Positions 6,017 through 47,338 of a stretch of 64,000 nt of DNA are shown in pieces. The notes under the pieces are model-generated. The model saw nothing but the letters and a program-made list of their open reading frames with translations, did no database searches and was not told where the DNA came from. A program made the translations under genes and the position numbers. Position 1 is the first letter of the stretch; each line of letters begins with the position of its first letter. The stretch spans positions 1,131 to 65,130 of the forward strand of contig JBJKYO010000055.1 of the NCBI GenBank assembly GCA_045561015.1. Reading direction: 5' to 3'. Source of the stretch: Longimicrobiales bacterium. Its GTDB lineage: Bacteria > Gemmatimonadota > Gemmatimonadetes > Longimicrobiales > Gaopeijiaceae.

Positions 6017-6057
6017 TGAGAGTTCGGGGATGGCCTATGTAAGTCCCCGAACTCTCA
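6017..6057. terminator. bidirectional hairpin between convergent genes
   Basis: Perfect 14-bp inverted repeat: tgagagttcgggga (6017..6030) pairs with tccccgaactctca (6044..6057), with a 13-nt loop. It sits between the + M20 gene and the - Smr-like gene. No clear U-tract. Confidence 0.65.
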
Positions 6058-6080
6058 GTGACAAAGACTCTGGTTGTTGC

Positions 6081-6335
6081 CTAAAGTTTTCTCACTACTA
6101 TCAGCCCATACCGCTCTTTCCCTACCTCTCTACAGTCTATCCTACCAAGGACTTCATCTACCAATTCGATCATGCGCCGACTATTTCCACAAATGATAGT
6201 CAATGGACATTCTTCCTGGTAACGATAAACGAAATTCTCTACTAATAGATCAACTTCATGATGCCTGACACCATGGAGATCCAAAAAGATCCCAGGCTGA
6301 TGTTTCTTGCGTGTCACCCTTGAGTCTTTAGACAT
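6081..6335 (-). CDS. small Smr-domain-like protein
   Basis: 84 aa with an LDLHG motif near the N-terminus, IICGNS in place of the usual IIHGKG, and a C-terminal YGLIVVRKL. Downstream of the rRNA methyltransferase gene on the same strand. Confidence 0.4.
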   Translation of the reverse strand: MSKDSRVTRKKHQPGIFLDLHGVRHHEVDLLVENFVYRYQEECPLTIICGNSRRMIELVDEVLGRIDCREVGKERYGLIVVRKL

Positions 6336-6383
6336 TTCACACTCGACTATAGTCGCTCCAAAACGTTAATTTAATTCTTGTTC

Positions 6384-7844
6384 TCATGAGTCACTTGGTG
6401 TGAAAACCTTTTTCAACCAGCGACGACGGACACCTGGAATTTCGCCTTTCAGATTGCCCTTTTGGATCAAACCACGACCCAAAACATGGTTCTTCCATTT
6501 CAAAGGTATAAATCCGTAATCATTCACAGAGACCGAAATGCTTTCCTCATTTAACAACCCATCCCATTCTTCCTTAGAGGGGCTATATGCAATCGATGAG
6601 ATACCCCTCTCCAAAAATCGCAATATGTCATTGGTAGGTCTCATTTCGTCACGAAACACTGGTGCCATAGCCCTTAAACCGACCGATAAGACTCTGCAAT
6701 GTTTGCTCTCAAACCAATCATCGCTAGGCCATTGGTCACAACCATGCAACCAAAGATCCTTTCCCCTCAATAACCAATTAAAATCAGAATCTAAATCGAC
6801 TTGGCCGTTTACATACCTAAGCATTCTTTCGATCCCAGTAGCTATAACCTCTTTAACCTCGACTCCAGCCTTCTTTTCTGAAGGAAATTGAACAGCGGAA
6901 TCCTGCCATCCTGACGACTTGTGTAAACATGCGGGATCGACTCGTTCCTCTTGATGGCGCAAGCGGGCCACAAAGAACCCTCCAGAATCAAGATGGTGTG
7001 GATATATTCTACATGTTTTCTCCAAACTTTCGTCGAATACCTTCCCTTCAAAATGAGTCAACCCAGGAGAATGTGGTATCTGTAAGCCGCACTCCTCCAG
7101 GCATACTGGCATATCCTTCAAAACAGCATCAATGACCCCTTCATTTTCCTCTGGAGCAAAAGTGCACGTCGAATAAACCACAACTCCACCAGGACGCGTC
7201 AAACCGATAGCTTTTCTTAACAAAGCTTCCTGACGCTTAGGCACCGATTGGCGAAATTTTTTGGATTCTTTTATTCGCCTGTTGCTCTTACGCCTTGATG
7301 TTCCTTCTGCAGAGCACGGTGCATCCACTATAACTCTGTCAAAAAGAGATGTCTCCGGCAATCTAAGTCCATCCCCAGAAACCACCATAACGTTGGAATG
7401 AACTAAACGATAAATATTAGCCATCAAAGCTTGTAATCGACCCTCATTACGATCGACTGCTACCAGACAACCCGTACCTTCCATTAAATCAGCAATCTGT
7501 GTGGTTTTACCTCCCGGAGCGGCACAAAGATCTAGAATTTTTTCTCCAGGTTTAGGTCGTAAAGCCAGGGCGGCTATTCCTGTAGAAACCTGCTGCACAT
7601 AAAAAAGGCCAAGCCAATGTTCTATCGTGTCTGCAATGTTAAATGGACCTTCGAGTACTCTGATAAAACTGTCGATCCCCTTTACCGCTTCCACTGAAAA
7701 ACCCTGATCTTCTAGCCGATCCATCAATTGTGCAGATGAAATCCTGCCTGTCCTGGCCCTTATGGTAGTAGGATCCCTCCCTTGAATGGAATCCTGAAAG
7801 GATTTCCAGTCGGGAATTATCTTGCGATACCGATCAAATGACAT
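6384..7844 (-). CDS. RsmB/RsmF (NOL1/NOP2/Sun) family RNA cytosine-C5 methyltransferase
   Basis: SAM motif DLCAAPGGKT, and catalytic-Cys motifs DAPCSAEGT and YSTCT. The long C-terminal extension resembles RsmF-type proteins. Confidence 0.85.
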   Translation of the reverse strand: MSFDRYRKIIPDWKSFQDSIQGRDPTTIRARTGRISSAQLMDRLEDQGFSVEAVKGIDSFIRVLEGPFNIADTIEHWLGLFYVQQVSTGIAALALRPKPGEKILDLCAAPGGKTTQIADLMEGTGCLVAVDRNEGRLQALMANIYRLVHSNVMVVSGDGLRLPETSLFDRVIVDAPCSAEGTSRRKSNRRIKESKKFRQSVPKRQEALLRKAIGLTRPGGVVVYSTCTFAPEENEGVIDAVLKDMPVCLEECGLQIPHSPGLTHFEGKVFDESLEKTCRIYPHHLDSGGFFVARLRHQEERVDPACLHKSSGWQDSAVQFPSEKKAGVEVKEVIATGIERMLRYVNGQVDLDSDFNWLLRGKDLWLHGCDQWPSDDWFESKHCRVLSVGLRAMAPVFRDEMRPTNDILRFLERGISSIAYSPSKEEWDGLLNEESISVSVNDYGFIPLKWKNHVLGRGLIQKGNLKGEIPGVRRRWLKKVFTPSDS

Positions 7845-7856
7845 TTCTAACCACGA

Positions 7857-8465
7857 TCAACGGTTCTTAGCTTCCCTAACTTGTGGTCGCCATCTGCCGC
7901 GACTACTCCGAATGCGATAAATCATCAAAACTGTGATCAACATTGCTGCCAAGGTAGGCCAATATGTGTCTGCTTTCACCTGCCAATAGAAATGAACTAC
8001 ACCCATGATCGTCGCTACATAAGCCAACCTATGAAGTTTCTTCCAGCGCTTACCCAAACGGCGAATCCAGCCCTTAGTGGAAGTGATCGCAAGCGGAATC
8101 AATAAGATCCACGCAGTGAATCCGATGGAAATGTAAGGTCTCTCCAAAACATCTTCTATGATGAACTCAAAATCTAAAGTCTGGTCCAACACAGCATAAG
8201 TTAAGAAATGCATTGTCAAGTAAAAAAATCCAAAGAGGCCCAAAGGACGACGAATTTTTATGATCTCATTCCACCCTATAACCGCTCTTAAGGGAGTAAT
8301 CGCCAGTGTCACTAACAAAAATATGAGGGAAATATCCCCCAATCGGTGTAAAATTTCCTCTATCGGGTTGGCACCCAGCCGATCATCCAAAAATCTCCAG
8401 ACTAACCACACAGTCGGCATTAATCCTGCAAACCAAGTAACCGACCTGAGTACGATTAAACGCAA
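7857..8465 (-). CDS. msrQ: MsrQ (YedZ) haem-b membrane subunit of periplasmic methionine sulfoxide reductase
   Basis: The ORF track gives 7857..8573, but that start overlaps msrP by 62 nt. TTG at 8465 follows AAGGA with a 5-nt spacer and yields MRLIVLRSVTWFAGLMPTVWLVW. That resembles the E. coli MsrQ N-terminus (MRLTAKQVTW...LWLVW) as I recall it. The protein is polytopic with conserved His and lies directly downstream of msrP. Confidence 0.8.
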   Translation of the reverse strand: MRLIVLRSVTWFAGLMPTVWLVWRFLDDRLGANPIEEILHRLGDISLIFLLVTLAITPLRAVIGWNEIIKIRRPLGLFGFFYLTMHFLTYAVLDQTLDFEFIIEDVLERPYISIGFTAWILLIPLAITSTKGWIRRLGKRWKKLHRLAYVATIMGVVHFYWQVKADTYWPTLAAMLITVLMIYRIRSSRGRWRPQVREAKNR

Positions 8466-8511
8466 TCTTTTCCTTGATTGCGATTCCACAGTTGAATCAG
8501 ACACAGACTGA

Positions 8512-9456
8512 CTAGTAATGAGTTCGAAGATCCATACCAGAGTATAGGCTTGCAACTTCATCAGCGTATCCATTGAACATCAGGGTCCGTCTTCTTCTAA
8601 ACTCTCCTATGCGTCTCTCACGAGCTTGGCTCCAACGAGGATGGGGCACATCTGGATTAACATTAGCGTAGAACCCATACTCATGAGATGCCGAACGTTT
8701 CCAGGTATTCATGGGCATCTGCTCTAGGAATCGCATACTTACTATCGATTTAATGCCTTTAAATCCATACTTCCAGGGTACCACAAGCCTGATCGGCGCA
8801 CCATTTTGGTTAGGTAAAGTTTTACCGTAGACGCCAGTAATGAGCATGGTAAGGGGATGTTTAGCCTCATCCAAACGAAGCCCTTCTACATATGGCCACC
8901 TCAATACTCCATATCTTTGACCAGGCATTTGCTCCAAATCGTGAAGAGTTCTAAACTCCACAAAACGTGCACTTCCAGAAGGTTTTGCCTGATCAATTAC
9001 GTCCTTTAAAGAAAAACCTTGCCACGGAATGACCATCGACCAAGCCTCAACACATCGCATTCGATAAACCCTATCTTCGATATTCCCAGGTTTAATGAAA
9101 TCTTCCAGACCGTAAGTCCCTGGATTATCACAAAGACCACCCACTTCAATAGTCCATGGCCTAGGTCTCAAGGTGTGTGCATTTCTTACAGGATCTGACT
9201 TTCCAGTTCCAAATTCATAAAAATTGTTATACGACGTTACATCATCAAATGGAGTCAATTCTTCATCTAATTCCGAACGCACCTTGCTCCAATCCTTTTG
9301 GGAATTTTCCGGTCCGATTGATCCCCCAATACCAGATCCCATAGAAGCTCCTGCTACAACAGCTGCACTCTTACCTATGAACTCACGACGATTTACATAC
9401 ACGCCCTCTGGAGTCATCTCAGATGATGGAATTTTTCCCGACTTGCCTATCAGCAT
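8512..9456 (-). CDS. msrP: MsrP (YedY) molybdopterin catalytic subunit
   Basis: Twin-arginine signal ([19 protein letters not shown]). Contains the YedY-type motif [18 protein letters not shown]. About 314 aa, as expected. Confidence 0.9.
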
Positions 9457-9542
9457 TATTGCCTCCGAAACAGAAATAGAACCATAAGAACAAGATAACC
9501 TTTCCCTGGTATAATTTCACTTCCAAGAATAGATCAAACAGG

Positions 9543-10637
9543 TCATCTGTTATCCGTCAGGGAAAATCTTGTTATTCGTCCCTGAGGACCAACTAGCCAG
9601 CCAGCCTCTGGGGAAGCGAAACCAACCGCCCAATAAGTCTCTCTGGTAATTGGGATCCAATTCATGCCCCCATCTAGTGACACATCGCCACCGTCAGGCC
9701 CAACTATGACTACCGTCGCAGTGGGCATACCAGGGACTATGGATGAACCATAGATAGGGCCTAAAATCTCCGGAGCCCCCGCAATCTTCCATGTTTCCCC
9801 ATGGTCTTCCGACAGAGCCACATTATCTGTAAGAACCGTATCGTTGCCAATCACACCACCCATTGCGAGCACACCCCCTTCTCCGATGACCGCCAACGAC
9901 GTCAGCCCCGCGGACGAACCGCTAACAACTGGAGTGACAGAACTATTCCAGGTTTCCCCTCTATCTTTGGTATACAAGACTCTAGCATTTTCACCATTTC
10001 CAGTAGCAACCCAACCTCTGGAATGACTATCTGTAGCTGCACACGTTCCGCTAGCCGCAAATCCGCCCTCTCCAACCTGGGCATCAGGCAATGCAGATTG
10101 TTCGATGCGATCCCATGAATCTCCCCCATCAATAGTTCGCAGAAGAAAAAGCTCTTCATCCACCGCATCGCCATAGGCAATTCCTACTTGCTCATCCCAA
10201 AAAGCCATGCAGTCCAAAAACCCTTCTGGATGGTCCATTACAAACTGAAGTGACCAAGAATCCCCTGAGTCACCAGTCCTATAGATCCTGGACAGGTCCC
10301 CTGTCCCTGCACTTAAGAGATAAGCGGTACTTCCACTAAAAGCTTCCACATCTCGAAACTCTAACATCTCCGCCCCAGGTAGTATCCGAGCCATCCAATT
10401 CAATCCACCATCCACAGTCAGCATATAAGTACCCTCATGCCCACTTGCCCAAACTGTGTCTTGGTTAACCACACTCACAGCCTGCAACAAAGCAGTAGTT
10501 TGACTCTGCTGAGCCAATGAAGTCACCCGCACCCTAGGATGATCGGGCATAAAACCTCTGGAATCCTGCTCACCGCAACTTTGAGTGCTTACCAGCAGGG
10601 TAACACTGGCCAGCCGAAATATGATTTTGTGAGTCAC
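9543..10637 (-). CDS. BNR/Asp-box beta-propeller lipoprotein (Ycf48/photosystem-II-assembly-factor-like fold)
   Basis: Lipobox-like LLVSTQSCG. Seven Asp-box-like motifs: DGGLNW, DSGDSW, DGGDSW, DRGETW, DHGETW, DGGMNW and others. Confidence 0.7.
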   Translation of the reverse strand: MTHKIIFRLASVTLLVSTQSCGEQDSRGFMPDHPRVRVTSLAQQSQTTALLQAVSVVNQDTVWASGHEGTYMLTVDGGLNWMARILPGAEMLEFRDVEAFSGSTAYLLSAGTGDLSRIYRTGDSGDSWSLQFVMDHPEGFLDCMAFWDEQVGIAYGDAVDEELFLLRTIDGGDSWDRIEQSALPDAQVGEGGFAASGTCAATDSHSRGWVATGNGENARVLYTKDRGETWNSSVTPVVSGSSAGLTSLAVIGEGGVLAMGGVIGNDTVLTDNVALSEDHGETWKIAGAPEILGPIYGSSIVPGMPTATVVIVGPDGGDVSLDGGMNWIPITRETYWAVGFASPEAGWLVGPQGRITRFSLTDNR

Positions 10638-10763
10638 TAGTCACTCCGAAGCAAAATTGACATTATTGTCATACAATAGGGTTAATCTTCTTTACAGTCA
10701 GGTGTATCTTTAGTGACAGCTCCATTATTTCACAAGAGAGAAACCCTAAAAGGCAACGACAGA

Positions 10764-11855
10764 ATGATGCATTTTGGACCTACCCATAAACTTATAGTTT
10801 TTAGCTTACTGTTTTTGGCCTGCTCCCCCAGCCACGTTGACGAAAAACCCAGCAAAGTCATCATGTTCATTGCGGACGGTGCTGGTGTAGAGCAATGGAC
10901 CCTGGCTCACTTCGCAAATGCGAACTTAGCTGTAGGCCAAATGCCCGTTGCAGGCCTGATGGATACTCGCGGATCAGATCACGAAGTGAGTGCCAGTGGT
11001 CCTACAGCAACAGCTATCGCGACAGGAACCCGGAGCTTCATAGGAGCTGTCGGAGTTGGTCCCGACAGTCTTCCCAGAGAGTCCCTTTTGGAGATAGCCC
11101 ACCGACAAGATTGGGGGACAGGCTTAATTACAACTACAAGCATAACAGACGCGACTCCAGCTTCATTTGCCGCACACGTTCCAAGCAGAACACAGCGAAT
11201 AGAAATACTAAAACAAATGATTGATTTACCCGTCAATGTTTTGTTGGGAGGCGGATCAAGAATGATGCAGGTAATAGAATCACAGGATTTGATAGAAATA
11301 CAGACACTGATTGAAGACCGCTACACTTACACTGAAGATCTGCTCGAACTGAAAATGCTTTCTCAAGACTCGACGGCCAATAACATTTTGGGTTTGTTCT
11401 CTCCTGGGGAAATGGCCATGGCGCTGCAAGGACGCTCACCCAGCCTAGCGGAAATGACGGCGGCAGGAATAGACATTCTTGAACATCACCCGAATGGATT
11501 CTTTCTACTCATCGAGAATGAAGGCTCTGACACATATGCTCACAGAAATCTTGGACGTGATGTACTAACAGCTGAGATGCTGCACTTTGACGAAGCCATC
11601 CGCATTGCACTCTCCTACCAAGAAAAACATCCAGAAACTCTAGTGGTAGTTACCTCTGACCATGAAACTGGAGGCATAAGCCTAAGAGGCGATGAAGACA
11701 GAAACATAGTTATGGATTACGCCACCACCAGTCATACGGCAGCACTAGTTCCTCTATTCGCAAAAGGTCCTGGAGCAGATCGGTTAGGCGGACTCAAAAG
11801 AAATGACCAAGTAGGTAAAATCCTTGCGAGTCTGATGGATTTTTCCTCAGATTAA
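10764..11855 (+). CDS. alkaline phosphatase (PhoA family), lipoprotein
   Basis: The ORF track starts at GTG 10713. ATG 10764 gives MMHFGPTHKLIVFSLLFLACS (lipobox). Motifs: FIADGAG, SASGPTATAIATG (nucleophile Ser region), ITDATPASFAAHV, TSDHETGG. Confidence 0.8.
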   Translation: MMHFGPTHKLIVFSLLFLACSPSHVDEKPSKVIMFIADGAGVEQWTLAHFANANLAVGQMPVAGLMDTRGSDHEVSASGPTATAIATGTRSFIGAVGVGPDSLPRESLLEIAHRQDWGTGLITTTSITDATPASFAAHVPSRTQRIEILKQMIDLPVNVLLGGGSRMMQVIESQDLIEIQTLIEDRYTYTEDLLELKMLSQDSTANNILGLFSPGEMAMALQGRSPSLAEMTAAGIDILEHHPNGFFLLIENEGSDTYAHRNLGRDVLTAEMLHFDEAIRIALSYQEKHPETLVVVTSDHETGGISLRGDEDRNIVMDYATTSHTAALVPLFAKGPGADRLGGLKRNDQVGKILASLMDFSSD

Positions 11856-11864
11856 GTAAGTATT

Positions 11865-11883
11865 TGTGAGCCCTTAGCTCACA
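11865..11883 (+). terminator. short hairpin after the alkaline phosphatase gene
   Basis: tgtgagc / gctcaca forms a 7-bp stem with a 5-nt loop, 10 nt after the stop codon. No U-tract follows, so this is weak. Confidence 0.3.
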
Positions 11884-12020
11884 GAAAACAATTGACTTGT
11901 CTTCTCTCAGCATTTTAAACAAACGTTTTAAATACTCTTCACCTTGCGCAAACACCCATGTCGAGTGGAAGTTGTGAGCAAATGTAGTGTTGTGGCAATG
12001 TAATCATGGGGAGAATTACT

Positions 12021-13280
12021 ATGGCAAACTTGACTAGAAGAGCTATGCTTGGGACCTCAGGGGGGCTCATTGCTGGAGGGCTCTTGAAAACCAAAGCAGA
12101 TGCTATCTCTTTTGCAGATAACGAATCCGAAAATACAGTCCAAGATCAAGATCCTACAAAAGTCTTAGGTAGGTTGACTAGTGAAGTGGGCCAAAGAGCT
12201 CCTGAGGAACAACCTCGACGGCTTGTTAGAAACCCCAATGTCTCACACTCGAGTTCATCCAGAACTCCATTGCACCAACTGCAGGGAATCATAACACCAG
12301 CTGACCTTCATTTCGAAAGACATCATGCTGGTATACCAACCATCGCCCCCGACCAATACGAATTGCTGATTCATGGTATGGTTGACCGACCCATGAAATT
12401 CACTTTGAGTGACCTGAAGCGTTTCCCCTCAGTGTCAAAACTGTACTTCATAGAATGTTCTGGTAATGGTGGTTCCTCCTACAACAAAAACGCCTCACGC
12501 GAGGTGGATCCCCAACAGATGGATGGACTAACGAGTACCAGTGAATGGACAGGCGTCCCCTTATCAACACTACTCCAGGAGGTCGGTGTGCAGAAAGGAG
12601 CCACCTGGTTAATGGCTGAAGGAGGAGATGCAGCAGTGATGGCTCGAAGTATACCCATTGAGAAAGCTTGGGACGATGCAATGATAGGTTACGGTCAGAA
12701 TGGAGAAGCTATTAGGCCGGAGCAGGGATATCCCGCAAGGCTTCTTCTACCTGGATGGGAAGGCAACGCTTCCGTCAAATGGATTCGTCGAATAGAAGTT
12801 AAGGACCAACCAACTATGACTCGGGACGAGACATCAAAATACACTGATCCTCTCAAGGACGGCACAGCCAGACAGTTCAGTTTTACCATTGATGCCAAAT
12901 CAGCCATAACCTTCCCTGCCTATCCTTATGCGTTGACTGAACCAGGTTGGTGGGAGATTCAAGGGGTCGCATGGAGTGGCAGAGGGCGCATCACTAAAGT
13001 CGATATAAGCACTGACGGTGGTGAAACCTGGAACGAGTCTAAACTTCATGGGCCTGTGCTTTCCAAATGTCACACCCGGTTTACCTATCCTTGGAATTGG
13101 GATGGGAAGGAAACGGTACTGATGAGTAGAGCAACCGACGAAACAGGCTATGTCCAACCGGCATTGAGTACACTAATGGAGGCCAGAGGTGAAGGCACCT
13201 CCTACCATTACAACAGTATTAGACCCTGGAAAATCGAAGAAGATGGAAGAGTGTACTTCGGTCAAGGAGAGATTTCATGA
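12021..13280 (+). CDS. sulfite-oxidase-family molybdoenzyme, SorA-like sulfite dehydrogenase
   Basis: The ORF track starts at 12006. ATG 12021 has GGGGAG 5 nt upstream and yields MANLTRRAMLGTSGGLIAGG (TAT signal). FIECSGNGG matches the Mo-ligand Cys region (ECAGN-type). An ATGA overlap joins it to the downstream cytochrome c gene. Confidence 0.8.
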   Translation: MANLTRRAMLGTSGGLIAGGLLKTKADAISFADNESENTVQDQDPTKVLGRLTSEVGQRAPEEQPRRLVRNPNVSHSSSSRTPLHQLQGIITPADLHFERHHAGIPTIAPDQYELLIHGMVDRPMKFTLSDLKRFPSVSKLYFIECSGNGGSSYNKNASREVDPQQMDGLTSTSEWTGVPLSTLLQEVGVQKGATWLMAEGGDAAVMARSIPIEKAWDDAMIGYGQNGEAIRPEQGYPARLLLPGWEGNASVKWIRRIEVKDQPTMTRDETSKYTDPLKDGTARQFSFTIDAKSAITFPAYPYALTEPGWWEIQGVAWSGRGRITKVDISTDGGETWNESKLHGPVLSKCHTRFTYPWNWDGKETVLMSRATDETGYVQPALSTLMEARGEGTSYHYNSIRPWKIEEDGRVYFGQGEIS

Positions 13281-39363: not shown

Positions 39364-40872
39364 ATGTCAGATGAAGAATTGGACAGAAGCAACGACCTAG
39401 ACGAATCGGGAGTACTCACTCTCCCTTCAATGAGTCCTAAAAGTTTACTAGCTCATTTTGGTCCCGGGATCGTATTGATGATGACCGGGATTGGAACTAG
39501 CCATCTCATAACTGCCCCAACAGCTGGTGGCCGTTTTGAATATGCTTTGCTCTGGTGCATACCTGCTTCTTACATATTCAAATACTATGGGTTTGAGATG
39601 GCTTTCCGTTTTACGAATGCCACCGGAAAGAGTCTCCTGGACGCATACGGGACCGCCAAATTTAAATGGCCAGTTTGGTATATGCTGATTGTAACAATAA
39701 TCGAATGCGCACTAGGCCAAGCAGGAAGACTGATCGCTGCTGCTGCAGTCATGTATTACCTCTTTACTGAGTCCATGTCACTACCGATCAACCCCGACCT
39801 AGAAGTCTATGGACTGATCCTCGGAGTAATTTCAGTCGCAATACTACTAAGGGGCAACTATTCAATAGTTGAGAAATTTGCAAAGGTCTTAGCAGGCCTA
39901 TTGCTGTTCTCAAGCCTTATGGTTTACCTGCAAGCTCCTGCTCCATTCTCGGAAATGGGTCATTTTTTCATCTTTGAAACACCTTCAGGATCATGGCTAA
40001 TTATTGCTGGATTCCTGGGCTTGCTTCCCACTGGAATGGATGTCTCTCTCCAGGCTTCAGAATGGGGCAGTGCAAGGCGACTTGGAATGGCGAGAGTCAG
40101 GCCTGAATTGGAAAGACAAGGATTGGCTTCTAGCTTTGATCCTTTCGGATCGCCTAAAGAAGACCTTGCCATTGATGCTTCTAGAATTCCTGGCCACATG
40201 CAAGAGTATTGCCGTCGTTGGTTTCGTATCGGGTTATGGGACTTTCGATTCGGCCACATGGCTTCATTCATGATAGCAACAATCTTTCTTCTCCTAGCAG
40301 CAGTGTGGATATACCCAAGCCCTGTAGAGGGACGGGGAGTAATGGGAGAAATTGCTGGTATATTTACTTTAAGTGTTGGACCTTGGATGATGGTCATCTT
40401 TATGATCGGAGCTTTCGCGGCAACTTTTTCCACTTCCTTTAATTATTTTGATGGATGGCCTCGATTGGTGGCAGCATGTTGTCGCAATCTATTCCCATCC
40501 ACGGCCAATCTGAAAGGAATCGAAAAAGAACACCACGTGAGTGAAGACTGCTCGACAAAGTGGTACTCGGAATACAATATCTATCGGATTACCATGATAT
40601 ACTCACTGATAGCTGCCGTGCTCTTCATTGCCGTGATTCCCAAACCGGTCTACATGGTACTAATAGCTTCCGCCTTGGCTTTTTTCGTAGCACCCATCAT
40701 TTTTTACTTGAACTTATACTACTGTCTCACGGTTATACCCAAAACAGACAAAATCTTTTATCCGAGTCGGTTTGACCGATATTTTGCCTGGTTTAGCTTA
40801 GCCGTTTTCAGTGGAATGATAATAATACTCTTTTTTGCCAGAGTGCTGCAGATTCCACTCTTCGGAATTTAA
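39364..40872 (+). CDS. divergent Nramp/MntH-superfamily transporter lacking the canonical metal-site motifs
   Basis: 502-aa polytopic protein. FGPGIVLMMTGIGTSHLI aligns to the Nramp GPGFL..DPGN region, but DPGN is replaced by GIGTSH. No MPHN-type motif is present (region LLPTGMDVSLQASEWG). Confidence 0.6.
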   Translation: MSDEELDRSNDLDESGVLTLPSMSPKSLLAHFGPGIVLMMTGIGTSHLITAPTAGGRFEYALLWCIPASYIFKYYGFEMAFRFTNATGKSLLDAYGTAKFKWPVWYMLIVTIIECALGQAGRLIAAAAVMYYLFTESMSLPINPDLEVYGLILGVISVAILLRGNYSIVEKFAKVLAGLLLFSSLMVYLQAPAPFSEMGHFFIFETPSGSWLIIAGFLGLLPTGMDVSLQASEWGSARRLGMARVRPELERQGLASSFDPFGSPKEDLAIDASRIPGHMQEYCRRWFRIGLWDFRFGHMASFMIATIFLLLAAVWIYPSPVEGRGVMGEIAGIFTLSVGPWMMVIFMIGAFAATFSTSFNYFDGWPRLVAACCRNLFPSTANLKGIEKEHHVSEDCSTKWYSEYNIYRITMIYSLIAAVLFIAVIPKPVYMVLIASALAFFVAPIIFYLNLYYCLTVIPKTDKIFYPSRFDRYFAWFSLAVFSGMIIILFFARVLQIPLFGI

Positions 40873-40910: not shown

Positions 40911-41825
40911 TTAACCTAGACGACCACCAATTTTCAATTGGTGCATCGAAATATACTCTTGAGCGGACATTTTTCCTGCCCCCTCCGGACGAACCCTTTG
41001 AATACATATTCCGCCATCCCCAGTAGCAACGACTAAACCTTCATTATCAATCGACAATATCTCTCCCGGATTTCCCGTCACCTCTGAGCATTTCACACAA
41101 TCAAAAATCTTGAGAGTCTGACCTTCGTGGATAGTCCAGGCACCAGGCTGTGGGTTAGCTCCTCGTATAAGATTATAAGTCTCTTCTGTTGGCGCTGACC
41201 AATCGATTTCTACATCCTTCTTCTTACACCAACTCTCATAAGTAGCCTGAGATTCATCCTGCACGATTTTAGGAGCATTCCCATCACGCACTAAGTCCAC
41301 ACTCTCTAACATAGCTTCCACTCCTAATGGAAAAAGCTCATTGAAATACAAGCTACCGAGTGTATCATCTTCTTTGATGTCCACCTCTTTTTGCAACAAA
41401 ACGGGACCAGTGTCTAATCCGTTGTCTGGCCAGAAAATACTTAGTCCAGTCTTCTCAGACCCTTTGATGATTGGCCAATTGATAGAACTAGGCCCTCTGT
41501 GCAATGGAAGTAATGAAGGATGGTACTGAATAGTCCCGTAAGTTGGAATGTTCAGAAATTCCTCTCTGACGAACAAAGTGACATACGCCATCACAACAAG
41601 ATCGGGAGCTAGAGAACGCAATTCATCACAAACTTCATCATCTGAATACGATGAGGGTTGGTAAACTGTAAGGTTTTTCTCAAGAGCTAGCTCCTTAATA
41701 GGGTCAAGAGGGCGACCCTCTCTGTCAGGAGCGCAGTAGACTGCCACGACATCTTCTCCTCTCTCGAGAAGGGCCTCCAGAACACTTTTTCCAAATGCTT
41801 GTTGGCCATGGACAACAATGCGCAT
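40911..41825 (-). CDS. formyltransferase-family protein resembling the N-terminal domain of 10-formyl-THF dehydrogenase
   Basis: 304 aa. IQYHPSLLPLHRGPSSINW and SIFWPDNGLDTGPVLLQKE match my recollection of ALDH1L1-N (IIYHPSLLPRHRGASAINW; SIFWADDGLDTGDLLLQKE) better than E. coli Fmt (NVHGSLLPRWRGAAPIQ). The C-terminal domain is Fmt-like. Starts 21 nt downstream of frc. Confidence 0.7.
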   Translation of the reverse strand: MRIVVHGQQAFGKSVLEALLERGEDVVAVYCAPDREGRPLDPIKELALEKNLTVYQPSSYSDDEVCDELRSLAPDLVVMAYVTLFVREEFLNIPTYGTIQYHPSLLPLHRGPSSINWPIIKGSEKTGLSIFWPDNGLDTGPVLLQKEVDIKEDDTLGSLYFNELFPLGVEAMLESVDLVRDGNAPKIVQDESQATYESWCKKKDVEIDWSAPTEETYNLIRGANPQPGAWTIHEGQTLKIFDCVKCSEVTGNPGEILSIDNEGLVVATGDGGICIQRVRPEGAGKMSAQEYISMHQLKIGGRLG

Positions 41826-41846
41826 ATCTAACTCCTTTAAAATTTT

Positions 41847-43091
41847 CTAAATAGATCCATCCGACCGAGCATCTTCTATCTCTGCTTCCGTCAACCCAAT
41901 CTCCGCTAACACTTTATCGGTATGCTCACCCAACAACGGAGCTCTGCTCACATCACTAGGAGATTTAGATAATTTAATCGGATTGCCCACTGTCAAATAA
42001 GACCCTCTCTCTGGATGTTCTACCTCTACTACGGTTCTTGTTTCTCTCAGAGCCTGATCTTCCCCTAATTCTTTCATACTCATAATGGGCCCACAGGGAA
42101 TCCCCAATTTACTCAATACATTCATTACTTCGAATTTTGACTTTGTTTCAGTCCATTCCTCGATGAGAGCAAAGCATTGATCTAATTTGGGAAGACGAAC
42201 TTCTGGTGTTGCCCACTCTGGATCAGTAATTAGCTCTTCTCTCCCAATAACCTTCATCAAAGGAGCCCACCCCGGTGGCTGTATAATGACGTAAATAAAA
42301 TCATTTTGTCCCCCTGGTGCACACTTGAGTACCCATCCTGGCTGACCGCCACCAGAAGCATTCCCGCTTCGGGGCACGAAATCACCAAATTCACCAGAAG
42401 GATATTGGGGATACTCCCTTAAGGGACCCCTTGTTAATCTCTGCTGATCTCTAAGTTTTATCCGACAAAGATTGAGAACTGCGTCCTGCATCGCGCACTC
42501 TACTCTTTGTCCCTCCCCCGTGTGAGATCGTTGAATCAAAGCCGCGAGTATCCCGGCCACCAAGTGCAGGCCTGTACCTGAATCTCCAATCTGTGCTCCT
42601 GTAACAGTAGGAACATCATCTTCGAAACCAGTAGTGCTGGCAGATCCACCCATACATTGAGCCACATTCTCATATACCTTACAGTCAACGAAGGGGCCTG
42701 GTCCAAATCCCTTAACCGAAGCATATATCAATCCTGGATTTACCTGTTTGATTTTGTCCCAGGTAAACCCCATACGGTCCAATGCTCCAGGCGCAAAATT
42801 CTCTACCAGAACATCACAGTGATCAACTAATCTCCAGAAAATTTCCTGTCCCTTTTCCGATTTAGTGTTCAGGGTGATGCTACGTTTATTGCTGTTCAGC
42901 ATTGTAAAATAAAGACTGTCCACGTCTGGAATATCTCTCAATTGACTCCTGGTGATATCCCCACGTCCAGGGAATTCCACTTTGATCACATCTGCTCCAA
43001 ACCAAGCAAGAATTTGCGTGCATGTGGGACCAGACTGCACATGGGTCATGTCTAACACGCGAACACCATCTAAAGCTTTACGCATTTCCAT
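41847..43091 (-). CDS. frc: formyl-CoA:oxalate CoA-transferase
   Basis: 414 aa with long stretches like O. formigenes Frc as I recall it: [67 protein letters not shown] (catalytic Asp region), [49 protein letters not shown]. Confidence 0.9.
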
Positions 43092-43144
43092 ACCTTACCT
43101 AAAGATTTCATTTTTGAACGAGAAATATTTTTTGGATCCCAAGC

Positions 43145-44836
43145 CTACTTATACATAGTCTGACGTTTTGTACCGGGAGCATATTCATTTGGATCTACCC
43201 AAATATTCACTACAGCTGATTTTCCAGTGGTCTTAACTGCTTCTCTAGCACGCAGAAGAGCCGGACCTATCTCAGATGGATCCCTAACGGCTTCTCCATA
43301 TCCCCCTAACATCGTCGCAAAATGCTCAAAATCCACATCACCTAACTTGTTCCCGATATTACCCCTTTCTTCGCCATATTTCGCTATTTGCCCGCATCGA
43401 ATCTGGTTCTGAGCGGAATTATTGCCAATGACCGCTATATACGGAAGTCCGAATCTGTTAGCGGTCTCCATATCAAAAGCGGTCATACCGAATGATCCAT
43501 CTCCGTAATAACAGAGGACCTCTTTTTCAGGATGAGCCAGCTTAGCAGCTATAGCAAATCCTGTTCCGACACCCAGTGAGCCTAGAGGGCCTGGGTCCAT
43601 CCAATGACCAGGTGATCGAGGGCGTACAGCTTGAGCAGAGATGGTTACAACATCCCCTCCGTCACCTATATAAATGGTTTCTTCTGTTAAGAACTCGTTT
43701 AATTCCCAAGCAACTCGATATGGATTAATCGGTTTGGCCTCAGATTTGAATAATGCGGTTAATTTTTCTTCTGCCGCTATTTCTCCAGCAGCTAACTGGT
43801 CCATCCAGACCACTCTCTTAGACGATCCGTTGTCTGATCTGTCATTGGCAACATCTGTAACCGCTTTCAATATCGTACCTACATCTCCAACCAGCCCTAG
43901 CGATACATCTCTATTTTTTCCGACAGTACGATAGTCCATATCAATTTGGACCACGGTCGCATCGCTCCGGAGCCTCTTGCCATATCCCATTCGGAAATCG
44001 AAAGGCGTGCCTACAATCACAATGACATCTGCATCATTGAAAGCCATCCGACGGGTTCTGTGGAAGTAATGGGGATCTTCTGCAGGCAAAGTCCCTCTTG
44101 CAGAACCATTCATATATGCAGGGATATTCAGTTCTCTAATAAAACGAACAGCTTCATCGTAAGCCTGACATGTAGCTACCTGTGTACCGAACAAGACACA
44201 TGGCCTCTCTGCGGCAACCAGCAAATCGGCTAGCTTCTCTATGTCACCTAAATCTCCAACACTCTTTGTAGACGCCCTATAACGTCCTGGCTCAGGAATT
44301 CTAGCGGTTTCTGCATCTATCTCAGCATCCAGTATATCACGAGGGATCTCTAAATAGGACGGTCCGGGTGCACCGTTGTGACATTCACGAACGGCCATAG
44401 ACACCATGTCGGCAATCCGCTCAGTACTCTGCACACTTGCAGAGAATTTCGTCACTGGTGCCGCTATATCAACATGTGGTAAATCTTGGAGAGAGCCCAT
44501 CTTATGCTGAGTCAGAGAACCCTGCCCGCCTATGTGTAGTATGGGACTTTCGGCCCGGAATGCATTGGCGAGGCCAGTCATCGCATTTGTAAAGCCAGGT
44601 CCGGCAGTGGTTACCACACATCCTGTACCACCAGTTTGACGAGCATACCCATCAGCAGCATGAGCCGCGACCTGTTCGTGTCGCACGTCTATGATTCGGA
44701 TACCCTCATCCAAGCAACCATCATAAATGTCAATTATATGACCCCCACAAAGAGTAAAAATTGTGTCAATTCCTTCATTTTTCAGGGCCTTGGCTACAAG
44801 GTGTCCACCTGTGATACGACCATTTGAACCACTCAC
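43145..44836 (-). CDS. oxc: ThDP-dependent decarboxylase, probable oxalyl-CoA decarboxylase (2-hydroxyacyl-CoA lyase family)
   Basis: 563 aa. ThDP motif GDGSFGMTAFDMETANRFGLPYIAVIGNN. N-terminal Pyr domain (GIDTIFTLCGGH..RHEQVAAHAADGYAR). GTG start with GAGGA SD. Lies immediately upstream of frc. Confidence 0.7.
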   Translation of the reverse strand: MSGSNGRITGGHLVAKALKNEGIDTIFTLCGGHIIDIYDGCLDEGIRIIDVRHEQVAAHAADGYARQTGGTGCVVTTAGPGFTNAMTGLANAFRAESPILHIGGQGSLTQHKMGSLQDLPHVDIAAPVTKFSASVQSTERIADMVSMAVRECHNGAPGPSYLEIPRDILDAEIDAETARIPEPGRYRASTKSVGDLGDIEKLADLLVAAERPCVLFGTQVATCQAYDEAVRFIRELNIPAYMNGSARGTLPAEDPHYFHRTRRMAFNDADVIVIVGTPFDFRMGYGKRLRSDATVVQIDMDYRTVGKNRDVSLGLVGDVGTILKAVTDVANDRSDNGSSKRVVWMDQLAAGEIAAEEKLTALFKSEAKPINPYRVAWELNEFLTEETIYIGDGGDVVTISAQAVRPRSPGHWMDPGPLGSLGVGTGFAIAAKLAHPEKEVLCYYGDGSFGMTAFDMETANRFGLPYIAVIGNNSAQNQIRCGQIAKYGEERGNIGNKLGDVDFEHFATMLGGYGEAVRDPSEIGPALLRAREAVKTTGKSAVVNIWVDPNEYAPGTKRQTMYK

Positions 44837-45061
44837 TTAATTATCCTCACTATTTTCAGTCTTTAAGTATTTTGACACTCCATCTTCGATCGTTTTGTTA
44901 AGGTACATAACGAAGGAAAGTTTTCATATCAATAGAGTATAGCAGAACTCACAAAAAGAAATCTCGGAGTTTGAATCTATCCTACGTCTGATTCCCAGAG
45001 AAACCAAGAGTTGGTGATCCATATGGTATATCTAGACCTGCCAGAGACAACTCGACCACTA

Positions 45062-47338
45062 CTAAAAACGGTAAGTGTAGTTCATCTTAACTGAAGCTCC
45101 GCGAGACAAAGTCCTCAGCTCTGGGTCCTCAAGAATGCTGGTACTTAAATTTTGCCAATTGTGAGTGTACACAAGAAACACTTCATTTCCTGGTTTAACT
45201 ATCCACCTTAAACGAGAGAAGAGACCAAACAGATCGCTTTGTTCGTCATACTGGACCTGAGTCACAGTACTTATCCACGGACTGGCCTGCCACTTTCCTT
45301 CAATTTCATAAAGATTGGCTGTGAAGTCGCCTTGAGGAAGCGAAACATCATTGATCTGTGTATTCAAGGCAATAGTAAAACCAGGGGTTGGCTTAATTGT
45401 GACTCGACCACCATATCCCAGCCTATGTCCATTCCAGAATTCTCCGAAACTCAACCCTCCATAAAGAGAGATTTTTCTTCTGCCAGCCGTATTACCCGAG
45501 ATCCTATAATCCCAGGTAGAATATTCGCCTTCCGTCAAATAAATGCCGTCACTGACCTGGTACGAACGGTCCAGAAATTCGTACTTTTGAGTAACGTCAA
45601 AATTGAACCTATCACCGCTTTCGAATTCTACCCCAAAAGGCTTCAAGGCCCACTCTCTCTCTTCGAGGATCCCAGTCCCCAACTCAGTCAGATTTCTAAA
45701 TTGTGCTGAAAAGTCAAATTTTCTGATCCAGTCAATATTCCCTGGACGGGGAGACCATCCTAATCTGGGTTCTATTCGACTGAAGTCATTTCGTGCTACG
45801 AATCCAAGAGATGGTCTATACTCCGCTCCAAACTGTCGATAAGAAAGGTGACCCGACCAAACGTCGTTCGGAAAATTTATACGGAAGCCATGAGCCGAAA
45901 GGTCTTCTGTAGAATGAACCTCCGTCGGATCTGGGTTAGAGTTCCATACGTAGAAAGCTTCCATCTCCACATTGTTATTTCCCAGAAAATTTCGTGAGTT
46001 GAGTTGCAAATCAACCCCCGCAGTATGACGATCTTCCAACACGGTCCCATCGGACTCAGCCGCACTCGCTCGGCGAGTGTAAATCGCTCCAATAGTAGAT
46101 TGTTCAAATACACGCCTCTTGATCCTGCCTACAGTGAATTGTTCCTCTGGAACAAAGTTTGATTGCTCACCAGTAATCCAGGATTTAGCGCCCGTTCCAA
46201 TTTGATAAAATCCTACTTCATACGCTCCAACCTGACCTGTCGTCCGAGCGCCATAACTAACTGGAACCGGCTGGCCATTTTTTAACCCGATATTTCTAGA
46301 AAAAAATGGAGAAGGACTACTTCTTGGTGCAAAGGAAAACACTCCTGATCCTTCCAGGAAGAAATCCCTCTTTTCAGGATATCGAATGGAAAATCGGGTT
46401 AAATTGACCCTGCGATTGTCACTCTCTACTTCAGCAAAATCAGTATTCACTGAAAAGGAGGCCCTCAAACTTGAAGTTATACTATAGTCGAGGTCCAAGC
46501 TTACATCTCTAGGGTAGGTCGTGGGCTCACTATTCGAAGGTGTATTTCTATAGCTGACTATCCCAGAAGGTTTAGCTTCTAACCCCAAGCCCTGTGACAT
46601 ATCTTTAAGTCCTGTCAAAGTTCCAGCAAAAATCGGCCTCCAGAGCCCCTCCGTTCTTCGCCATCCCCTCCAAAGAATCTCTTCGTTTTTCCTTCTTATT
46701 GTTCGCTGGAAATTAATCCCCCAATCCTCAGTATTCGGATCGAAGTTTAGTGTGCGAAATGGGATTCTAATCTCTGCGGACCAGCCGTCTGGCCTCCTAC
46801 TGGTCTGAGCCTCCCATATCCCATCCCATGCTTTGTTCGCACCGCCGCCAAAACCACCACGACCAAAACCACCACGACCTCCACCTCCACCTCCCATTAA
46901 CCCATCACCCATCAATCCAGCCGCGTTTATCTCAAAGAAATAACCAGTGCGCCCATCCCTAAATGTATCCAAGATCCACATGAACCGATCATCTGAACCC
47001 AGCGAAGCATCACGCTCTAGTTGGTTGGCAAGGATTCCTTCAGGGTCATCATAGATAATTGCCCCGATATATAAGTTGTCGCTGTCAAAAATGACACGCA
47101 CTTCTGTTCTTTCTGAAGGCTCTCCACCTTCAAGGGGTTCTTGCTGAGTAAAATCACTTATAGGTACCGCTTGTTGCCATACGTCTTCTAAAATCTGCCC
47201 GTCCAAATCCAGAGTGATGCCATCCGACATCTGAAAGGCCTGGAGAACAGGATCAGGGCTATCTTGAGCGACTAATGTCTCCTTGCTGAGACAACTCACC
47301 ACAAGAATGAAAGAGAATGCTGATAGGACTCTTATCAC
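45062..47338 (-). CDS. DUF5916-like protein with CBM9-like N-domain, probable outer-membrane beta-barrel
   Basis: 758 aa with signal FSFILVVSCLS. N-domain: LDLDGQILEDVWQQAVPISDFTQQEP..EVRVIFDSDNLYIG. The C-terminus ends YTYRF (OMP-like terminal Phe). Contains a Gly/Arg/Phe insertion GGGGGGRGGFGRGGFGGG. Confidence 0.7.
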   Translation of the reverse strand: MIRVLSAFSFILVVSCLSKETLVAQDSPDPVLQAFQMSDGITLDLDGQILEDVWQQAVPISDFTQQEPLEGGEPSERTEVRVIFDSDNLYIGAIIYDDPEGILANQLERDASLGSDDRFMWILDTFRDGRTGYFFEINAAGLMGDGLMGGGGGGRGGFGRGGFGGGANKAWDGIWEAQTSRRPDGWSAEIRIPFRTLNFDPNTEDWGINFQRTIRRKNEEILWRGWRRTEGLWRPIFAGTLTGLKDMSQGLGLEAKPSGIVSYRNTPSNSEPTTYPRDVSLDLDYSITSSLRASFSVNTDFAEVESDNRRVNLTRFSIRYPEKRDFFLEGSGVFSFAPRSSPSPFFSRNIGLKNGQPVPVSYGARTTGQVGAYEVGFYQIGTGAKSWITGEQSNFVPEEQFTVGRIKRRVFEQSTIGAIYTRRASAAESDGTVLEDRHTAGVDLQLNSRNFLGNNNVEMEAFYVWNSNPDPTEVHSTEDLSAHGFRINFPNDVWSGHLSYRQFGAEYRPSLGFVARNDFSRIEPRLGWSPRPGNIDWIRKFDFSAQFRNLTELGTGILEEREWALKPFGVEFESGDRFNFDVTQKYEFLDRSYQVSDGIYLTEGEYSTWDYRISGNTAGRRKISLYGGLSFGEFWNGHRLGYGGRVTIKPTPGFTIALNTQINDVSLPQGDFTANLYEIEGKWQASPWISTVTQVQYDEQSDLFGLFSRLRWIVKPGNEVFLVYTHNWQNLSTSILEDPELRTLSRGASVKMNYTYRF
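46848..46877. repeat. 15-nt tandem duplication inside the Gly-rich insertion
   Basis: ccaaaaccaccacga occurs twice in tandem (46848..46862, 46863..46877), encoding GRGGF GRGGF on the minus strand. It is followed by a cctcca-type low-complexity run to about 46895. Confidence 0.85.

Follow-up and report, generated by a model that had tools for sequence, protein, structure and literature searches.

A stand-alone formyltransferase related to the FDH N-domain as a candidate formyl-CoA valve in bacterial oxalate breakdown

The stretch of DNA analysed here (the window, 64,000 nucleotides of contig JBJKYO010000055.1, assembly GCA_045561015.1) comes from a Longimicrobiales bacterium of the phylum Gemmatimonadota and carries, on its minus strand between positions 44,836 and 40,911, the genes for a thiamine diphosphate (ThDP)-dependent enzyme, the formyl-CoA:oxalate CoA-transferase Frc and a stand-alone formyltransferase (FT). 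The best explanation of the trio, judged from its sequences and from those of its relatives, is an operon for coenzyme A (CoA)-dependent oxalate breakdown, in which FT would probably transfer a formyl group between 10-formyl-tetrahydrofolate (10-formyl-THF) and CoA, in one direction or the other. This reading is carried by three sets of observations: the nearest relative of FT is the N-terminal domain of 10-formyl-THF dehydrogenase (FDH), the FT gene stands next to frc in several phyla, and its presence in sampled genomes follows that of Frc almost perfectly.

Identity of the formyltransferase, Frc and the ThDP enzyme

On sequence and tree evidence, FT is a third formyltransferase paralogue of its genome, related to the FDH N-domain and distinct from the housekeeping methionyl-tRNA formyltransferase Fmt, although public annotations give it that enzyme's name. 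Its Formyl_trans_N and Formyl_trans_C domains score 106.8 and 85 bits in Pfam, and it lies under the cut-off of every curated NCBIfam family, reaching 188.1 bits on the fmt model TIGR00460, whose cut-off is 201.5, and 137 bits on the ArnA model. Against proteins of solved structure its best score is to the FDH N-domain (201 bits), followed by the best Fmt (172), ArnA (108), HypX (59) and PurN (47), in agreement with an earlier sequence-only reading of the window that had placed FT nearer the FDH hydrolase domain than Fmt on the strength of two active-site strings, IQYHPSLLPLHRGPSSINW and SIFWPDNGLDTGPVLLQKE, both of which occur in the translation. A maximum-likelihood tree of 81 FT sequences, six Fmt, two FDH N-domains and three other paralogues gathers the FT proteins in one tight clade that is sister to the FDH N-domain (SH-aLRT 95) and apart from Fmt, so that FT groups with FDH instead of with the sugar-nucleotide formyltransferases.

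The residues of the active site tell the same story. His102, Ser104 and Asp138 of FT are invariant in 81/81 members and correspond to the FDH triad His106-Ser108-Asp142, and FDH residues Phe89, Arg114 and Tyr200 are matched by F85, R110 and Y196 of FT, of which Y196 is invariant and R110 at least 90% conserved (19 members), F85 also being present. Where all six aligned Fmt sequences have the Asn of the N-x-H motif, FT has Gln and the FDH N-domain Ile. An AlphaFold2 model of FT (pLDDT 89) superposes on the FDH N-domain 4qpd with a TM-score of 0.87. FT, a stand-alone protein whose next gene is convergent, has no fused carrier-protein or aldehyde dehydrogenase domain and is therefore a relative of the FDH N-domain and not an FDH; nor does it show features of PurU, since it has no ACT domain, carries Formyl_trans_C instead and finds no PurU model among its NCBIfam matches.

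Exactly three genes of the genome encode a Formyl_trans_N domain, namely PurN on contig C95, a true fmt on contig C90 (276.5 bits, over the cut-off, and directly downstream of def) and FT, so that FT is not the sole fmt homologue. A separate Fmt above the cut-off was also present in 5/5 other FT-carrying genomes tested. Housekeeping Fmt was rejected as an identity for FT on the sub-cut-off fmt score, the separate def-fmt pair of this genome and the separate Fmt of the five other carriers, and a sugar-nucleotide formyltransferase was rejected on the scores and tree, in both of which the FDH N-domain comes out best, and on the neighbouring genes, among which sugar-nucleotide genes do not recur.

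The middle gene of the trio is, by model score, a true formyl-CoA transferase: it reaches 664.4 bits on the equivalog TIGR03253 (cut-off 504.2), as the strong frc call of the sequence-only reading would lead one to expect, and 697.7 bits on NF003809 (cut-off 442), and it is 54–92% identical to the Frc proteins encoded beside FT elsewhere (46/80 loci).

The ThDP enzyme is a different matter. It does contain the GDG...NN motif reported in the sequence-only reading, which took the gene for a classical oxalyl-CoA decarboxylase (Oxc), yet it fails both Oxc models, TIGR03254 and PRK09259 (235.6 bits vs a cut-off of 739.4, and 255.4 vs 557), and belongs to a distinct clade of the superfamily of Oxc and 2-hydroxyacyl-CoA lyase (HACL), which we label c3-type. 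No NCBIfam cut-off is reached by the window's enzyme, which scores 452 bits vs 587 on PRK05858 and 338.3 vs 600 on the actinobacterial HACL model NF058623. Its best solved relatives are HACL/HACS enzymes, at about 260 bits, against 166 bits for the Oxc of Oxalobacter formigenes, and its identity to Oxc is about 25–27%. Among 28 c3-type sequences, aligned and numbered on the O. formigenes enzyme, the replacements Y120L, E121Q, Y483I, S553G and I34G are invariant (28/28) and Arg555 is mostly Lys, while the ThDP-activating Glu56 is retained. We take Tyr120, Glu121, Tyr483, Ser553 and Arg555 to be catalytic or substrate residues of Oxc, as structural work on the O. formigenes enzyme presumably established.

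By score, then, the c3 enzyme lies outside the Oxc family, and by context it partners frc as Oxc does, being adjacent to it and the only candidate for consuming oxalyl-CoA. Across 20 Frc-positive alphaproteobacterial genomes, nine have a canonical Oxc and 11 a c3 enzyme, with none having both and none having neither; whichever is present adjoins frc, and the c3 orthologues there are 68–79% identical to the window's. Canonical Oxc was not found in the genome of the window, an 83%-complete metagenome-assembled genome (MAG). Because the two types exclude one another, because the c3 gene is always beside frc, and because no Oxc accompanies it in this genome, the c3 clade most probably takes the functional place of Oxc, as a candidate oxalyl-CoA decarboxylase that would regenerate formyl-CoA, its substrate being assigned from gene context. 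To judge from its best NCBIfam match, the c3 enzyme is probably mis-named acetolactate synthase.

Conserved neighbourhood and co-occurrence with Frc

Close relatives of FT (60–85% identity) occur in at least 580 species-level genomes, and the neighbourhood counts given here cover the best 80 loci among them. Frc is encoded within 10 kb of FT in 46/80 loci from several phyla, mostly directly upstream and on the same strand, so that the linkage noticed at this single locus proves to be strongly conserved, and it is found with canonical Oxc and with the c3 type alike. The gene 5′ of frc is of the c3 type in about 33 loci (72–78% identical to the window's enzyme) and a bona fide Oxc, with 1012 bits on PRK09259, in about 10. 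Directly downstream of FT, about 27 loci carry the gene for formate-THF ligase (Fhs, 919 bits), which is often followed by an NAD-dependent formate dehydrogenase. In its fullest form the supercluster runs TctCBA transporter, GntR/FCD regulator, Oxc or c3, Frc, FT, Fhs, Usp, SucCD and NAD-dependent formate dehydrogenase. In Alpha- and Gammaproteobacteria, SucCD paralogues are a recurrent part of these superclusters (L012, L017, L019, L026, L029, L031, L035, L040, L053 and L056). The succinate-CoA ligase beta model gives them 576 bits and the malate-CoA ligase model, with its cut-off of 604, gives 531; their role may be to provide succinyl-CoA, another possible CoA donor, or to ligate a different acid.

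In the genome of the window these partners are dispersed, with fhs and fdsBA forming a divergent pair on contig C91 and folD lying on contig C74. The pair on C91, which is outside the window, spans 6033-12284, with fhs at 10626-12284 (+) and fdsB and fdsA at 10365-6033 (-), and the FdsA frame contains one in-frame TGA that could be either a selenocysteine codon or an assembly error. A contiguous trio of c3 gene, frc and FT is also seen in a streamlined alphaproteobacterium with a genome of 1.4 Mb (G063, C1:1267867-1271664), which suggests that the trio, as in the window, is a minimal functional unit. The Gemmatimonadota loci have neither GntR nor Tct genes, and in the tree the FT of the window and that of another Longimicrobiales MAG nest among proteobacterial sequences; together these observations suggest that a minimal three-gene module was acquired horizontally.

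Genome-wide sampling extends the association beyond gene order. In an even sample of 201 alphaproteobacterial genomes there were 17 with FT, 20 with true Frc and 96 with Fhs, three of the Frc genomes being without FT, and Frc and Fhs together were present in 17/17 FT carriers; for Fhs, the comparison is 16/16 sampled alphaproteobacterial FT carriers vs 43% of non-carriers. Among 300 gammaproteobacterial genomes FT and Frc occurred in the same five genomes and nowhere else. The pooled table of 499 evenly drawn genomes, from which both centre genomes were left out, holds 20 genomes with FT and Frc, none with FT only, three with Frc only and 476 with neither (Fisher p = 7e-33, phylogeny not corrected). 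A true YfdE, the enzyme that primes the oxalate cycle of Escherichia coli, was found in one sampled genome, 1.4 kb from frc, and this genome is one of the three that have Frc without FT, a single case that fits the need for a primer.

Where FT stands apart from frc, its neighbours include a C13 peptidase, a PIN protein, an ABC exporter, a Dyp peroxidase, a sulfatase and a MerR regulator, and no alternative conserved context emerged at the FT loci without frc. In the tree, FT genes with and without a nearby frc are intermingled; linkage to frc has therefore been lost several times within one orthologous group. In genomes G004 and G025, whose complete Pseudomonadales/Azotimanducaceae chromosomes have FT but no true Frc, an Oxc/HACL-like ThDP enzyme is encoded at L112 1501-3069 (-) and L110 1501-3087 (-); it stays just below the Oxc cut-off (541 vs 557 bits). 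This enzyme is probably a 2-hydroxyacyl-CoA lyase, and it is possible that it provides FT with another source of formyl-CoA.

Proposed reaction and the readings that compete with it

In the mechanism proposed here, Frc would transfer the CoA of formyl-CoA to oxalate, with oxalyl-CoA and formate as products, the c3 enzyme would decarboxylate oxalyl-CoA back to formyl-CoA, and FT would interconvert 10-formyl-THF plus CoA and THF plus formyl-CoA by means of its His102-Ser104-Asp138 triad. The FT reaction is proposed because the N-domain of the animal FDH passes the formyl group of 10-formyl-THF to the 4′-phosphopantetheine thiol of a carrier domain (PMC8748788), and because there is precedent for the same chemistry with CoA: LctF converts 10-formyl-THF and CoA to formyl-CoA in vitro (PMC11730586), and a structural study of HypX proposes the same transfer for its N-domain (PMC6802093). 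In FDH, roles have been assigned to Phe89, His106, Arg114, Asp142 and Tyr200, and the “hydrolase” activity of the isolated N-domain requires millimolar mercaptoethanol (PMC4388273). The gene identities, the paralogy, the conserved residues, the linkage and the co-occurrence are observed; that CoA is the acceptor of FT, that the transfer is reversible and which way it runs physiologically is what we infer. The transfer itself, in either direction, we regard as probable, whereas the transfer together with the direction towards formyl-CoA is a serious candidate that falls somewhat short of an even chance.

What such an enzyme would contribute follows from the nature of the cycle. The Frc/decarboxylase cycle conserves a thioester but cannot create one, and formyl-CoA hydrolyses fast, with a half-life of 1.9 h vs 92 h for acetyl-CoA (PMC3720670); for these reasons FT would act as the only entry and exit valve of the cycle. 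Fhs and FT together would turn formate, ATP and CoA into formyl-CoA, and could thereby start the cycle, top up the pool and set its size. A primer of this kind is required in E. coli, whose oxalate cycle depends on YfdE (PMC3720670). The sequence-only reading had suggested a direct link between the formyl unit and the tetrahydrofolate pool, and as a prediction from gene context this part is well supported, while the canonical oxc partner with which it was coupled is not borne out. Its further remark, that such a link was not established, needs to be qualified, since LctF has been shown to transfer formyl to CoA and the HypX N-domain has been proposed to do so; it still holds in that neither of these acts in oxalate catabolism.

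The same reaction could also run the other way, the direction named first in the sequence-only reading, so that formyl-CoA would be drained to 10-formyl-THF to feed the one-carbon (C1) pool, or to yield ATP through Fhs in reverse, bypassing free formate. Transfer from a thioester to THF should be downhill on approximate general energetics, the genome encodes the folate enzymes Fhs and FolD, and the SucCD paralogues, were they to serve as CoA donors for oxalate, would free formyl-CoA for withdrawal. Against this, the net ATP yield equals that of the Frc and Fhs route and there is no clear gain, because each withdrawn formyl-CoA calls for another ATP-costing activation of oxalate. An Fhs beside FT would moreover be redundant for assimilation, and both LctF and HypX run towards formyl-CoA (PMC11730586, PMC6802093). 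Draining is thus rather unlikely in our judgement, and between the two directions we lean mildly towards priming.

Two readings that dispense with formyl-CoA altogether fare less well. FT might be a 10-formyl-THF hydrolase that substitutes for PurU and guards the THF pool against the surge of formate that reaches Fhs in cells growing on oxalate, a view encouraged by the naming of the isolated FDH N-domain as a hydrolase (PMC4388273) and by the fact that PurU is not among the three Formyl_trans_N genes of the genome. The FDH activity, however, depends on a thiol co-substrate (PMC4388273), FT lacks the ACT regulatory domain of PurU, and housekeeping of the folate pool does not predict the near-perfect co-occurrence with Frc; Fhs directly downstream (about 27 loci) would create an ATP-wasting futile cycle, and it is this arrangement in many relatives that makes plain hydrolysis, offered as an alternative in the sequence-only reading, a poor fit. 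We consider it improbable. Still less probable is that FT formylates some other acceptor, such as an amine metabolite, a sugar nucleotide or Met-tRNA, with its adjacency to frc reflecting co-regulation only. Most proteins with the Formyl_trans_N/C architecture are indeed N-formyltransferases, FT does reach 188 and 137 bits on the fmt and ArnA models, and some FT genes lie in unrelated neighbourhoods. Yet FT is below the cut-off of every family, is missing the N-x-H Asn and stands apart from Fmt in the tree, the genome has its housekeeping def-fmt pair, and no sugar-nucleotide or nonribosomal peptide synthetase (NRPS) genes recur near FT, which is 60–70% identical across phyla with Frc and Fhs as its constant partners.

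Formyl transfer between 10-formyl-THF and CoA in the service of the oxalate cycle must itself be weighed against several observations that count against it. Every Oxc-specific catalytic residue is missing from the ThDP partner. Of the 80 closest loci, 34 have no frc within 10 kb of FT, and a genome-wide search of 36 of the 80 genomes (these 34 together with L022 and L054, which likewise showed no frc close by) returned a true Frc in 16/36. Several complete Pseudomonadales/Azotimanducaceae chromosomes have FT, Fhs and an HACL-like ThDP enzyme but no true Frc. The complementarity of YfdE and FT amounts to one genome only, and SucCD could, by priming through succinyl-CoA, make priming by FT less necessary. 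As to chemistry, the HypX N-domain is only distantly related to FT (59 bits), and a Foldseek search with the FT model gives TM-scores of 0.87 for the FDH N-domain vs 0.90 for Fmt, so that the fold does not separate the two and the discrimination comes solely from sequence and tree.

Textbook oxalate catabolism is a closed cycle of Frc and Oxc, and to our knowledge its start-up has been described for E. coli alone, where YfdE provides it. The full proposal, which we put forward tentatively and as a whole hold to be somewhat less likely than its priming component, is that Fhs and FT form an ATP-driven route from formate to formyl-CoA that primes the oxalate cycle and sets its thioester pool in most environmental Proteobacteria and some Gemmatimonadota, and that the decarboxylase of the cycle in more than half of them represents a second evolutionary origin of oxalyl-CoA decarboxylase, its active site being different. 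What would be new is the placement of the FT family in oxalate metabolism, its fold being known and its type of reaction known from LctF and HypX; in a full-text literature search no paper put the FT family in oxalate catabolism or described replacement of the decarboxylase by a c3 enzyme. The “formyltransferase” of Azospirillum OX-1 is a methanofuran enzyme and has no bearing on FT.

If the proposal is true, FT would be an unrecognised core part of the pathway, present in about 87% of sampled Frc-carrying Proteobacteria and mis-annotated everywhere as methionyl-tRNA formyltransferase. Oxalotrophy surveys based on oxc probably overlook more than half of Frc-carrying lineages. Fhs and FT would also constitute a natural route from formate to formyl-CoA of relevance to C1 engineering, in which formyl-CoA-based pathways now use promiscuous acyl-CoA synthetases for that step. 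A bolder version can be envisioned in which the c3 enzyme acts as a formyl-CoA carboligase; the module could then be a natural form of C1 assimilation based on formyl-CoA.

Layout of the locus and comparison with known systems

All three open reading frames called in the sequence-only reading were recovered on the minus strand, including the 21-nt gap between frc and FT and the 304-aa length of the latter's product (Table 1). The ThDP gene and frc are separated by 53 nt, and each gene of the trio has a ribosome-binding site: GAGGA, 8 nt before the GTG start, for the ThDP gene and a strong AAGGAG, 7 nt before the ATG, for FT. Upstream of the trio there is a single sizeable gap, in which a putative promoter may lie. 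A consensus promoter scan found no sigma-70-like sites in this gap, and the promoter and terminator scan as a whole returned fewer sites than shuffled sequence, which renders it uninformative. The GntR/FCD regulator gene that is located 5′ of the module in Proteobacteria is absent at this locus, in an assembly that is a MAG of 1.73 Mb.

Table 1. Features of the oxalate module in the window.
Feature	Coordinates	Strand	Description
ThDP enzyme, c3-type	44836-43145	minus	563 aa, GTG start; TPP_enzyme N, M, C domains
frc (formyl-CoA:oxalate CoA-transferase)	43091-41847	minus	414 aa, family III; CoA_transf_3 329 bits
FT, stand-alone formyltransferase	41825-40911	minus	304 aa; Formyl_trans_N + Formyl_trans_C
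Presumed promoter/leader of trio	44837-45061	minus	225 nt; sole sizeable gap upstream of trio

On the downstream side, a gene for a 502-aa Nramp-like transporter (window 39364-40872 (+)) faces FT in convergent orientation, the two stop codons lying 38 nt apart. The Longimicrobiales locus L007 has a 90%-identical copy in the same position, and none is seen in any proteobacterial locus; the transporter is a lineage-specific neighbour. On the upstream side, directly before the operon and on the same strand (window 45062-47338 (-)), lies the gene for a 758-aa protein that looks secreted and has a DUF5916 match, a weak CBM9 match, a Gly-rich insert and no NCBIfam match.

Of the known systems, the N-domain of FDH (ALDH1L1; 4qpd, 1s3i, 2bw0 and 7rlu) is the closest to FT, with which it has in common the His-Ser-Asp triad, the two-lobed fold, the key Phe, Arg and Tyr residues and the motifs YHPS, LPxHRG and INW. 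FT differs in being a stand-alone bacterial protein of about 35% identity that does not have its formyl unit oxidised to CO2, and its proposed acceptor is free CoA in place of the tethered 4′-phosphopantetheine of FDH. Fmt (TIGR00460) shares the domain pair and the fold, whereas FT is not beside def and is without the N-x-H Asn. Compared by description, LctF of Streptomyces lactacystinicus, which takes part in lactacystin biosynthesis, is likewise stand-alone and Fmt-like and carries out the reaction proposed for FT (PMC11730586), but it serves a polyketide synthase/NRPS pathway, whereas FT would serve oxalate catabolism. The N-domain of HypX (HoxX; 6j0p), which functions in CO-ligand synthesis for O2-tolerant [NiFe]-hydrogenases, has an FDH N-domain-like fold (PMC6802093); it is unlike FT in several respects, with a TM-score of 0.69, fusion to an enoyl-CoA-hydratase-like decarbonylase domain, a modified His-Asp-Asp triad where FT keeps His-Ser-Asp, and CoA as a bound prosthetic group.

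The remaining two comparisons concern function and the decarboxylase. YfdE, an acetyl-CoA:oxalate CoA-transferase (ACOCT), does the very job that is proposed for FT, namely to provide the first thioester for the Frc/Oxc cycle (PMC3720670), but it is a family III CoA-transferase that uses acetyl-CoA and is unrelated to FT in family and chemistry. The c3 enzyme, for its part, shares superfamily and domain order with Oxc (O. formigenes 2c31 and M. extorquens 7ayg) and with HACL (7pt1 and 8vza), and it has the same position directly upstream of frc and the same activating Glu as Oxc, whose Tyr120, Glu121, Tyr483 and Ser553 are, in the c3 enzyme, Leu, Gln, Ile and Gly.

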